DNA from: Antedon mediterranea | Lineage: Eukaryota; Animalia; Echinodermata | Assembly: GCF_964355755.1 (NCBI RefSeq) | Contig: NC_092678.1 | Location: 19,547,365 to 19,611,364 of the forward strand | Length of the DNA: 64,000 nucleotides | Direction: 5' to 3' | In this document: positions 58,201-60,281 of the stretch, piece by piece | Layout: every line of letters begins with the position of its first letter | Position numbering within the stretch: the first letter of the stretch is position 1 | Program-made: the position numbers and the translations under genes | Notes under the pieces: generated by a model | What the model was told of the DNA's origin: nothing | The model's input: only the letters and a program-made list of their open reading frames with translations | Database searches by the model: none

Positions 58201-60281
58201 AAGTATACACTTTTGAACAGTACTTTAAAATTAAACTAAAAGTTGAACTTTGACATAAAAACACTAAAATGATAAAACAGAAAAAGCCAGGTGGAATGGA
58301 AAGTGCTGAATATAAAGGACATCATGCAACAGTCAGTCATCATATAAGTGACCGACAACACTTTGACGGTCAACTTACTCTTTGGAGTATGCTGTCCCTC
58401 GTACAGGACCACTTTTACATCCGGTTCGACAGCTGGAACTAAATTATGATACAAGTCCCTTTAGGAATTTTTTTTTGTAATTGTAAAAAAGTTTAGTATT
58501 TCTTCAATAAAATAGTCGATAGTGGTTTTCAATAGTTTAAATACACAAATGTCCCTCTTTAATGAGAAAGTGTTCCCATAATAGGAGTGCCCCCTTAATA
58601 GAGGTTTACAATATTGTTTACAAGTACTGCCCAAGTGTCCCATACAAAATGCCTGTGTAGAAATATGCAAATTATTAATTGTTGATCAACACCCACCTTC
58701 TTGTGTTATACAGATTGAACCGCTGCCCATTCCAACACGAAGGGCGTCCACACCAGCTTCGATCAAGGTCTTGGCTTGGCTTGTTGTTACAACTATATGA
58801 AAAAAAAATATATATATATGATGTATAATAAATCCACAGGCAAATTACTGAAAAATTACAATGATGTAGCTGTATAAAATGGAGGTACAAAATAAAATAA
58901 GCAAAAAAAGTAAAAGCGCTAGAAAAAGTTTGTTAGGCGGTGTGATTGAGTTGACCTCAACTCTCTCTTTTCAAAAGAGGTCAAATTCGATGCTTGAATC
59001 AATTGGGGTTTTTAAAACTGTTCAAAATAGGTGCTTTTTTTAAAAAACAAAACCTCTTTCTGTTTTGCAAGAAATTACTGTTTTTCTCAGTAGAAACGGG
59101 CCCAATGGATGAGGTGAACATTTCCGTTATTATGCTCCAACCATCTTCCGAAACATCAACACTCTCAACTTATAATTAATTTCCTTTTGGAAATACATGG
59201 TGTAGCACAAAATTAGTTATTTATTTTGTTTATGTTTCATTCAATGAATTTTGTTAAAGATGGAATAAATTACCGTTTCCTCCAACGACTTGAAGATCTG
59301 GAAAGTTTTGTTTAATGTGTTTGATCATGCGAATTTGATAAATAGAATTTCCTTGAGAAGAGTCCTATATACAAAAATAAATTAAAAGAAAAAAATGTAT
59401 TATATTCAAAATGTAACATACACTATACACAAGTTGTAAACTACGTCTTTATCAAATCAACTAGCAAAACTCCGAAGATACTTAAAAACTTTTGACACAC
59501 CAAAGTTGTAGAAGTTGTGGTTGTGAATGGTAATATCAAACAACTCCGGGGTTAAAAACACCAAGTTGAATGTAGGCTGACTGCAGAAACACACCAGGAA
59601 GGACATTGTGAAGGTACTGACTTTAAACACACCAGGAAGACATTGTGAAGGTACTGACTTTAAACTCTGGCGTAGTTACTGTAGGTAAAAAGGTTATCCT
59701 CACACGATAAATCATTGCTTGAGTTTTATTTTAAAATACTTTTAATAAATATTTGTACAAAATATTTAGGCAGGTCTAAAAAGTATTTAAAAATAATTAT
59801 TAAACCAGAAATATACTAAATATATAAAAATGATTCTAATGATTGTCGCGAATAAACAGAATAGAGGGCAGTATTTACAATTTAAAAATAAAAATGTTGG
59901 GTTGCAACTAGGTGGATATGAATAGAGTCTCCCTAGAGTTTGTCGCCGTTGTGAATGGTCACTGACCTCAGAATTGCTTCGGGGTTCCTCCAGAGTAATG
60001 AATGCGGAGTTTGATTTGAAAGTACTGTATATCATTGAAAATTGTCTATAGATTATCAGGAATATTTGTGAAGTACATTACCAAGACGACAACATCAACG
60101 CCAGCATTGACCAACATTTCTAAACGTTCCTTGTCATCGTCTCTTGTTCCAATAGCGGCACCAACCAGTAGCTGTTTCCTTTCGTCTTTAGAGGCAAGAG
60201 GAAACTCACGATGTTTCTTCAAATCTGTCCTGGAGATTAGAGAGACTAGTTCATCTTTTTCATTGACTATTGGGAGTTTTC
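49256..60281 (-). CDS. IMPDH: Inosine-5'-monophosphate dehydrogenase, 3' portion (5' exons not seen in the window)
   Basis: Minus-strand exons 60281-60082, 59364-59274, 58792-58697, 53718-53575, 51574-51430, 51155-51012, 50398-50315, 49277-49256 join in frame: [110 protein letters not shown]. Confidence 0.97.
50315..50398 (-). CDS. IMPDH: IMPDH exon [27 protein letters not shown]
   Basis: 84 nt, GT-AG boundaries. Confidence 0.96.
50500..50845 (-). mobile_element. tRNA-derived SINE with Deu/Nin-like domain
   Basis: Minus strand TGGCCGAGTGGTTAG A box, then CTTCTCGGATAAAGACTATAAA..TTAAAGAAC..TTTCGATATGAGTAGGGG; related fragments at about 2000-2050 and 35330-35375; domain name assigned from memory. 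Confidence 0.65.
51012..51155 (-). CDS. IMPDH: IMPDH exon [47 protein letters not shown]
   Basis: 144 nt, GT-AG boundaries. Confidence 0.97.
51430..51574 (-). CDS. IMPDH: IMPDH exon [47 protein letters not shown]
   Basis: 145 nt, GT-AG boundaries. Confidence 0.97.
52558..53515. repeat. MITE family C (TACAGT(T)AGAACCTCTAT..GGGGACA type) with an internally expanded 75-110-bp minisatellite
   Basis: Tandem CCCCTTCTAGGGCTGTCTCAAAGCAGGGGTTCAAATGTATTTC units at 52660-53445; related short copies at about 10155-10570, 15400-15515, 49820-49915, 51270-51350, 58068-58200, 58550-58610. Confidence 0.7.
53575..53718 (-). CDS. IMPDH: IMPDH exon [47 protein letters not shown]
   Basis: 144 nt, GT-AG boundaries. 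Confidence 0.97.
54497..54848 (+). repeat. Tandem duplication, 2 x ~175 bp, directly upstream of the nested gene
   Basis: AGTCTCACATTCAATACTAAA..CCTGCACCTATAAATCAATTTTATACTTTATGATTAATG occurs twice; each copy has TATAAA motifs. Confidence 0.9.
55055..57522 (+). CDS. Nested uncharacterized multi-pass membrane protein (signal peptide, ~190-aa extracellular domain, about 8-9 TM segments), one +1 frame break at 56067-56072; possible pseudogene
   Basis: Overlapping ORFs 55179..56072 and 56014..57522 merge into one ~780-aa protein if one T is removed from AAC-TTT-T-AAC. A short exon 55055-55067 (ATG ATA AAA CAA A|gtaagt) splices in frame to the tttcag acceptor at 55177. Signal-like [25 protein letters not shown] cluster at about 57580-57595. 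Lies antisense within IMPDH intron 53719-58696. Confidence 0.75.
56944..57128 (+). repeat. Coding 57-bp tandem repeat ([19 protein letters not shown], about 3 copies)
   Basis: Near-identical in-frame units inside the hydrophilic loop of the nested gene. Confidence 0.9.
58379..58438 (-). CDS. IMPDH: Candidate IMPDH alternative cassette exon (V)[19 protein letters not shown], 60 nt (54 nt using the acceptor at 58432)
   Basis: Tandem acceptors tttag|ttccag|, consensus donor AGA|gtaagt, phase 1-1 matching the host intron, no stop, higher GC than the flanks, TGCATG about 50 nt downstream. Confidence 0.65.
58697..58792 (-). CDS. IMPDH: IMPDH catalytic exon [31 protein letters not shown]
   Basis: 96 nt, contains the catalytic Cys motif GSICIT. 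Confidence 0.97.
59274..59364 (-). CDS. IMPDH: IMPDH exon [30 protein letters not shown]
   Basis: 91 nt, GT-AG boundaries. Confidence 0.97.
60082..60281 (-). CDS. IMPDH: IMPDH exon (CBS end, [23 protein letters not shown]...AGVDVVVL)
   Basis: 200 nt, GT-AG boundaries. Confidence 0.97.

Follow-up and report, generated by a model that had tools for sequence, protein, structure and literature searches.

The IMPDH gene of Antedon mediterranea and its cassette exon

The window analysed here is a 64,000-nucleotide (nt) stretch of DNA from the crinoid Antedon mediterranea (NC_092678.1, positions 19,547,365 to 19,611,364), which carries on its minus strand the C-terminal part of the gene for inosine monophosphate dehydrogenase (IMPDH). 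The subject of this report is a 60-nt cassette exon in that gene that adds 20 residues to the loop carrying the catalytic cysteine, together with its counterparts in other deuterostomes. The Antedon protein features the IMPDH domain (Pfam PF00478, E 5e-134) and the CBS pair (PF00571), its top Foldseek matches are human IMPDH1 and IMPDH2, and its catalytic loop, GSGSICIT, is intact, with the cysteine at C338. A neighbouring exon of the locus matches A. mediterranea IMPDH at 100%. The cassette contains no stop codon, changes the following Val to Met, and its translation matches residues 343-362 of RefSeq isoform X1 (XP_071960256.1) with 100% identity. The IMPDH cluster of this species has two members, X1 with 541 and X2 with 521 amino acids, of which X2 skips the cassette, and exons 7-14 in the window, translated with or without the cassette, give C-terminal parts identical to those of X1 and X2, respectively. 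The cassette lies behind an intron of 258 nt and 4.66 kb ahead of the next exon, which is 144 nt long. An earlier sequence-only reading of this DNA had proposed a hidden cassette exon; all of its positions, the phase, the donor and the downstream TGCATG hexamer were verified and the X1/X2 pair establishes a true cassette exon, however, the exon is not hidden, since RefSeq X1 already contains the 60-nt form.

The insert of a second crinoid, Anneissia japonica, is identical to the Antedon cassette at 17/20 residues, with 94% identity over the remaining protein, and is present in two of five Anneissia proteins. The exact match to RefSeq X1 and the 17 residues shared with Anneissia place the cassette above chance. 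Its acceptor had been described as weak, and the pyrimidine tract (9/15) is indeed the weakest among nine acceptors, although narrowly, the others having 10-12/15. The sequence-only reading also proposed tandem acceptors giving an exon of 60 or 54 nt and an insert of 18-20 residues. Both versions preserve the frame without a stop and the 60-nt form is annotated, but the 54-nt form is absent from the two Antedon and five Anneissia proteins examined. Isoforms of the hemichordate Glandiceps differ by Val-Pro, the same two residues that are encoded between the Antedon tandem acceptors, and the Apostichopus insert starts with Val-Pro-Ala, which suggests that the tandem acceptor itself is old.

The transcript evidence in Antedon comes from one run, probably RNA, of five listed, in the form of assembled contigs, which drop minor forms. 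A spliced contig of 2027 nt (depth 35.6) contains the skip junction 58697-53718, and an unspliced contig of 254 nt (depth 7.4) from the same run spans the cassette. The inclusion form is represented by the RefSeq X1 model.

Inserts at the same junction in other deuterostomes

The junction that holds the Antedon cassette carries in-frame inserts of 8-28 residues in echinoderms of four classes, one hemichordate, amphioxus, tunicates, and the IMPDH2 of jawed vertebrates. The ambulacrarian inserts measure 20 residues in crinoids, 20 or 21 in asteroids and in echinoids, 26 in the sea cucumber, and 26 or 28 in Glandiceps. The chordate inserts measure 21 residues in amphioxus, 14 and, through a second acceptor, 8 in Ciona, 17 in a tunicate-like protein, and 24 in jawed-vertebrate IMPDH2. 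Inserts are annotated in 12 ambulacrarian species, mostly alongside a skip form, and the bearers besides crinoids are Asterias (two species), Patiria, Acanthaster, Strongylocentrotus, Lytechinus (two species), Diadema, Apostichopus, and Glandiceps. The tunicate-like protein groups with Ciona in the tree and probably derives from a spliced transcript, because the contig that encodes it is only 2230 nt long. The 24-residue insert is present in sharks, bony fish, lungfish, coelacanth, frogs, reptiles, birds, and mammals, which bears out the vertebrate IMPDH2 insert at this junction that the sequence-only reading had mentioned. A search with the insert region as query, which is biased toward insert carriers, returned 110 new proteins, 101 of them with a junction insert. 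A metagenome scan reduced 81 candidate stretches to two loci, one of which is a true fish exon; the second was judged not to be an exon. The fish genomic locus features a 72-nt exon of phase 1-1 with a GTAAGT donor. Outside deuterostomes the samples are thin: the insert was found in 0/14 proteins that contain the loop, from cnidarians (5), insects (3), and copepods (6), and in none of the best 120 matches per search.

In every lineage the frame is kept, the loop is intact to the Glu, and the junction residue is hydrophobic (Met, Leu, Val or Ile). The last ~8 residues of the insert are conserved within each clade. Among 41 distinct, hand-picked vertebrate inserts six positions are invariant, with PP, SPK, and a late Gly among the invariant features. 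Judging from the tree, echinoderms appear to have a single IMPDH gene.

Peptide similarity was evaluated with a shuffle test. Against the vertebrate profile it gave p=0.001 for Ciona, p=0.003 for the tunicate-like protein, and p=0.01 and 0.04 for amphioxus. Within ambulacrarians the values were p=0.001-0.008 for the hemichordate against urchins and p=0.02-0.03 for the crinoid against urchins. The Antedon insert gave p=0.013-0.04 against four vertebrates and p=0.022 against the profile, a likeness that comes from the shared words PD[IV]K and H[ST]PK, whose order also agrees. A match of 12/13 bases between Antedon positions 58383-58395 and the end of the fish exon (p=0.003) was taken as chance, the frames being different and the fish codons variable across vertebrates. 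The intron upstream of the exon is 257 nt long in human, close to its length in Antedon; this likeness is probably also chance, because the upstream intron of the fish exceeds 849 nt.

Most IMPDH1 "inserts" were not counted, since they start with Gly or end with Val and vary between species, as in read-through or forced gene models. UniRef IMPDH1 models from tilapia, turbot, and clownfish contain a common short peptide at the junction, which may come from models forced across a conserved element of the intron or be what is left of the exon in IMPDH1. Cyprinid IMPDH2 features a second insert of 12 residues, alone or preceding the 24-residue insert. The fish IMPDH2 cluster includes ARIH2 proteins, probably via a fused gene model, and cluster sizes are not IMPDH2 counts.

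The human exon

The 72 nt of the human IMPDH2 cassette, labelled "exon 9b", account for the 24 residues by which the human insert isoform, with 538 amino acids, exceeds the 514-residue skip form. The human exon shares with the Antedon exon the intron, the phase, the kept frame, and the position directly after ITQE, and both forms are annotated in both species; however, it is 72 rather than 60 nt long and the peptides are only marginally alike. Table S1 of PMC5082313 lists the exon, between flanking exons of 96 and 144 nt, as a splicing biomarker of myotonic dystrophy type 1 (DM1), with an inclusion in tibialis of 0.72 (standard deviation 0.065) in 11 controls and 0.36 in 44 patients. The exon is located at chr3:49063428-49063499 in hg19 and chr3:49025994-49026066 in hg38 (table S1 of PMC5082313 and of PMC13330057). 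It has been reported as being MBNL-dependent, and it is one of the exons used as markers from which MBNL activity is inferred (PMC13330057). IMPDH2 is also among the listed genes in bioRxiv 728881. The proposal of the sequence-only reading that the switch is ancient and tissue-regulated finds its support in these two places: inserts occur in all deuterostome phyla sampled, and the human counterpart is regulated in muscle.

The papers found treat the human exon, in the parts available, purely as a marker and do not discuss the protein. No study of the insert protein isoform or of its age was found in the literature searched, a scope that mostly excludes subscription papers. Word look-ups in the IMPDH2 papers PMC11312571, PMC12704788, and PMC13594852 and in the PMC5703972 supplements gave no mention of the isoform, and the available main text of a 2026 preprint on tissue-specific exons (bioRxiv 10.64898/2026.09.05.749416) does not name IMPDH. 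The retinal IMPDH1 variants 546 and 595 (17-nt exon, PMC5703972 supplements) are likewise a case of tissue-specific splicing that tunes IMPDH; unlike the Antedon insert, they extend the termini, alter feedback by guanosine triphosphate (GTP) and filaments, and leave the catalytic loop untouched. The Antedon exon is thus already annotated and the human exon is already a DM1 marker; that the exon is common to deuterostomes and located in the catalytic loop was not found in print.

The insert in the catalytic loop

The catalytic Cys (C338 in Antedon, Cys331 in human) precedes the insert by four residues, and the insert falls between human positions 335 and 336, which agrees with the proposed insertion into the loop that carries the catalytic Cys. 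The same active-site loop binds K+. The canonical enzyme, with its PF00478 domain and CBS pair, shares the catalytic-loop residues and the fold with the Antedon protein; unlike Antedon X1, the 24 closest solved sequences all lack an insert at this junction. The two residues that the insert separates line the binding site for inosine monophosphate (IMP) (PMC9643795). The active-site loops of IMPDH close on the substrate, reopen for product release, and brace the tetramer when ordered, and in the normal enzyme the active-site loop is disordered without IMP (PMC7018514). An AlphaFold model built with 105 sequences kept the barrel (predicted template modelling score, pTM, 0.67) and gave no confident structure for residues 333-367; a single-sequence fold failed, with a predicted local distance difference test score (pLDDT) of 29.

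The sequence-only reading had also suggested that the insert could modulate filaments. At the positions of Y12 and R356, which form the filament bridge in vertebrates, Antedon IMPDH has Pro and Gly instead, so that a vertebrate-type filament effect is unlikely in the crinoid. The inserts are rich in Pro, Ser, and Thr. The word [ST]P[KR], a motif chosen after looking, occurs in 4/8 lineages against 0.47 expected (p=4e-4): SPK is present in 41/41 vertebrate inserts, and TPK or SPR is present in crinoids, Glandiceps, and amphioxus. The word is absent from the inserts of asteroids, echinoids, the sea cucumber, and tunicates.

Splicing regulation

The TGCATG hexamer at intron position +51 is the sole copy within 200 nt downstream of the eight exons examined. 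The window contains 22 copies on both strands (17 minus, 5 plus), so that a copy within 100 nt has a 1.6% probability by chance. Two more copies lie in the downstream intron (53957 and 54353), one of them at a distance of 239 nt from the exon that follows, and five more are clustered further downstream at 37797-38088 on the minus strand. In the one vertebrate locus analysed, from a fish, four YGCY motifs (MBNL-type) occur in the first 100 nt downstream of the exon and TGCATG does not appear until +700. The human exon tracks MBNL activity, whereas the Antedon cassette is followed by TGCATG, and its downstream intron contains no YGCY before +191. Downstream UGCAUG drives RBFOX-dependent inclusion of exon 9 of GFPT1 (PMC10514471). 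Control of the Antedon cassette by RBFOX through the hexamer at +51 has, judging from the motif, about an even chance of being correct. A hairpin that would hide the donor was considered and rejected: a 66-nt piece gave z=-2.55, but a 161-nt piece gave z=-1.46, and the unpaired probability of the donor (0.27) falls within the 0.18-0.67 of constitutive donors.

Coordinates and other features of the locus

The features of the IMPDH gene in the window are collected in Table 1.

Table 1. IMPDH features in the window, in the direction of transcription.
Feature	Positions	Strand	Length	Basis
IMPDH exon, first coding exon within the window; residues 1-213 beyond the window end	60082..60281	minus	200 nt	RefSeq match
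IMPDH exon	59274..59364	minus	91 nt	RefSeq match
Upstream constitutive exon, ends with the catalytic Cys338 loop	58697..58792	minus	96 nt	RefSeq match; spliced contig
Cassette exon, phase 1-1	58379..58438	minus	60 nt	Sequence; residues 343-362 of RefSeq isoform X1
Interval between tandem acceptors; inner AG gives the 54-nt exon (58432-58379)	58433..58438	minus	6 bases	Sequence
Cassette donor, consensus GTAAGT	58373..58378	minus		Sequence
RBFOX-type hexamer TGCATG (predicted), intron +51	58323..58328	minus		Sequence
Downstream constitutive exon	53575..53718	minus	144 nt	RefSeq match; spliced contig
IMPDH exon	51430..51574	minus	145 nt	RefSeq match
IMPDH exon	51012..51155	minus	144 nt	RefSeq match
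IMPDH exon	50315..50398	minus	84 nt	RefSeq match
Last coding exon and stop codon	49256..49277	minus		RefSeq match

The intron of the cassette also contains a nested, intronless reading region on the opposite strand (55152-57522, plus), with open reading frames of 306 and 502 amino acids. Both are hydrophobic, they overlap in different frames at 56014-56072, and a short tandem repeat lies at ~56930-57150. Neither has a Pfam match, and their matches in an atlas to nematode seven-transmembrane receptors score <0.8. A contig from the RNA run lacks one base at 56067, where a DNA run agrees with the window, and the frame break there may therefore be polymorphic. A contig from the DNA run skips ~410 bases at 54375-54786 and probably represents the other haplotype.

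Proposed mechanism

The reading proposed here, to which a probability of roughly 0.55 is assigned, is that the exon is a frame-preserving IMPDH cassette, likely inherited from the deuterostome ancestor and likely tissue-specific (in muscle in humans), which is predicted to lower and not abolish activity. The weak acceptor would make skipping the default, and a tissue factor bound downstream would switch inclusion on, with even odds that this factor is RBFOX at +51 in the crinoid, and with MBNL in vertebrates. From the next step onward we infer the consequences for the enzyme. With the barrel and the residues through Glu342 intact, the subunit would fold and keep its nucleophile, and the flexible 20-residue extension would slow or re-tune the closing of the loop on IMP and its reopening. 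Cells that include the exon would send less IMP to guanine nucleotides; textbook purine metabolism suggests that working muscle would in this way spare IMP for the adenine pool. A proline-directed kinase might, more speculatively, adjust the insert via the [ST]-P-[KR] word. The insert is predicted to tune rather than destroy the enzyme, because the frame, the loop to Glu, and the hydrophobic junction residue are kept everywhere and the last ~8 residues are conserved by clade.

The closest case with measured kinetics is exon 9 of GFPT1, a cassette that is likewise short and frame-preserving, belongs to an enzyme that limits the rate of its biosynthetic pathway, and has UGCAUG downstream. Its inclusion in striated muscle is enhanced by RBFOX and it is also on the DM1 marker list; in the long form, GFPT1-L, Vmax is roughly halved and Ki is five times lower (PMC10514471). 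By analogy with the effect of that exon on GFPT1 in muscle, the IMPDH exon most likely dampens its enzyme. However, GFPT1 exon 9 is found in mammals only and lies near a domain end rather than in an active-site loop, and GFPT1-L is known from measured kinetics and a knock-out, whereas the IMPDH insert isoform is known here from sequence. Chicken myoblasts have been reported to degrade IMPDH2 during differentiation (PMC13594852).

Alternative explanations

Several observations weigh against the proposed reading or limit the evidence for it. Under a pseudo-exon filter (YAG acceptor, GTRAG donor, 30-150 nt, in frame, open) the 4978-nt intron contains six acceptor-donor pairs at four places, the cassette included; the sequence features of the cassette alone are weak evidence, because three other places (four more pairs) pass. 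Of the junctions named in the sequence-only reading, the skip joint was recovered in one contig, but no inclusion joint is present among the contigs of the sole probable RNA run, which as contigs cannot show absence. Two hemichordates, Ptychodera (0/2 proteins) and Saccoglossus (0/2), have no insert. The low model confidence at the insert says little on function, because the loop is also disordered normally without IMP. Peptide similarity between echinoderms and chordates is not significant after allowing for nine tries: the likeness to vertebrates in P---PD[IV]K, claimed in the sequence-only reading, is borderline in Antedon, Anneissia gives p=0.12-0.35 (p=0.35 against the profile), and the other seven ambulacrarian inserts are not significant. 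Finally, IMPDH1 of five snake genera features a conserved in-frame insert of 38 residues at the same junction, unrelated in peptide sequence and apparently the product of an upstream alternative acceptor, so independent gains at this junction happen. The skipping seen in the RNA run and the other open pseudo-exons would suit splicing noise or an annotation artefact, an explanation that is highly improbable in view of the residues kept in Anneissia and the annotation of inserts in 12 ambulacrarian species. That ambulacrarians and chordates each gained an exon of their own in this intron, as a hot spot for tuning IMPDH, is unlikely but draws on more: besides the lack of convincing peptide similarity between the two groups and the separate snake insert, the C-terminal insert motifs differ between them, and so do the candidate regulators (TGCATG in the crinoid, YGCY in fish). 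On the other side, independent gains would have had to strike the same intron out of ~13 with the same phase and a similar size, the sampled deuterostome groups nearly all have the insert, which the cnidarian, insect, and copepod proteins of that thin sample lack, and Antedon shares its two words with vertebrates in the same order. Position, phase, size, and a near-continuous distribution favour one origin, which the ambulacrarian and chordate exons probably share.

The effect on the enzyme could also differ from the predicted dampening. The included form might be a subunit without catalytic activity, which would poison or dilute the tetramers that it joins or leave the protein available for a role other than catalysis, as the separation of two residues that line the IMP site and the need of catalysis for an ordered active-site loop (PMC7018514) would allow. 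This is improbable: no lineage has lost the Cys, Thr, Gln or Glu of the loop or the hydrophobic character of the junction residue, echinoderms appear to have no second IMPDH gene, inclusion is high in healthy human muscle, and a frameshifting exon would be a simpler off-switch, yet all inserts keep the frame. A similarly low probability is given to an insert that loops out harmlessly and leaves catalysis unchanged, its peptide serving as a docking or phosphorylation site that alters localisation, stability or partners. The variable length (8-38) and sequence of the inserts, their Pro, Ser, and Thr content, and the SPK, TPK or SPR words are consistent with such a role, but the word is missing from four of the groups named above, and a docking peptide need not occupy the most constrained loop, the known IMPDH1 variants using the termini. 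Dampening of a working enzyme is the effect preferred here.

Significance

The value of the finding lies in the connection across deuterostomes rather than in the exon call, because the Antedon exon was already annotated. Many structures of IMPDH, a drug target, have been solved, the 24 closest solved sequences lack the insert, and the exon is present in ~72% of the IMPDH2 transcripts of healthy tibialis and in 36% in myotonic dystrophy (PMC5082313). The crinoid exon suggests that the switch is older than vertebrates, which argues for a function of the exon. In its widest and tentative form, this would be a deuterostome splice switch more than half a billion years old that rebuilds the IMPDH loop; adult human skeletal muscle may then contain mainly the insert form of IMPDH2, dampened, tunable by phosphorylation, and guarding the IMP pool, and losing this form in myotonic dystrophy may shift the purine balance. 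The switch would bear on IMP handling in muscle, on metabolic aspects of myotonic dystrophy, and on IMPDH2 variants in neuromuscular disease.

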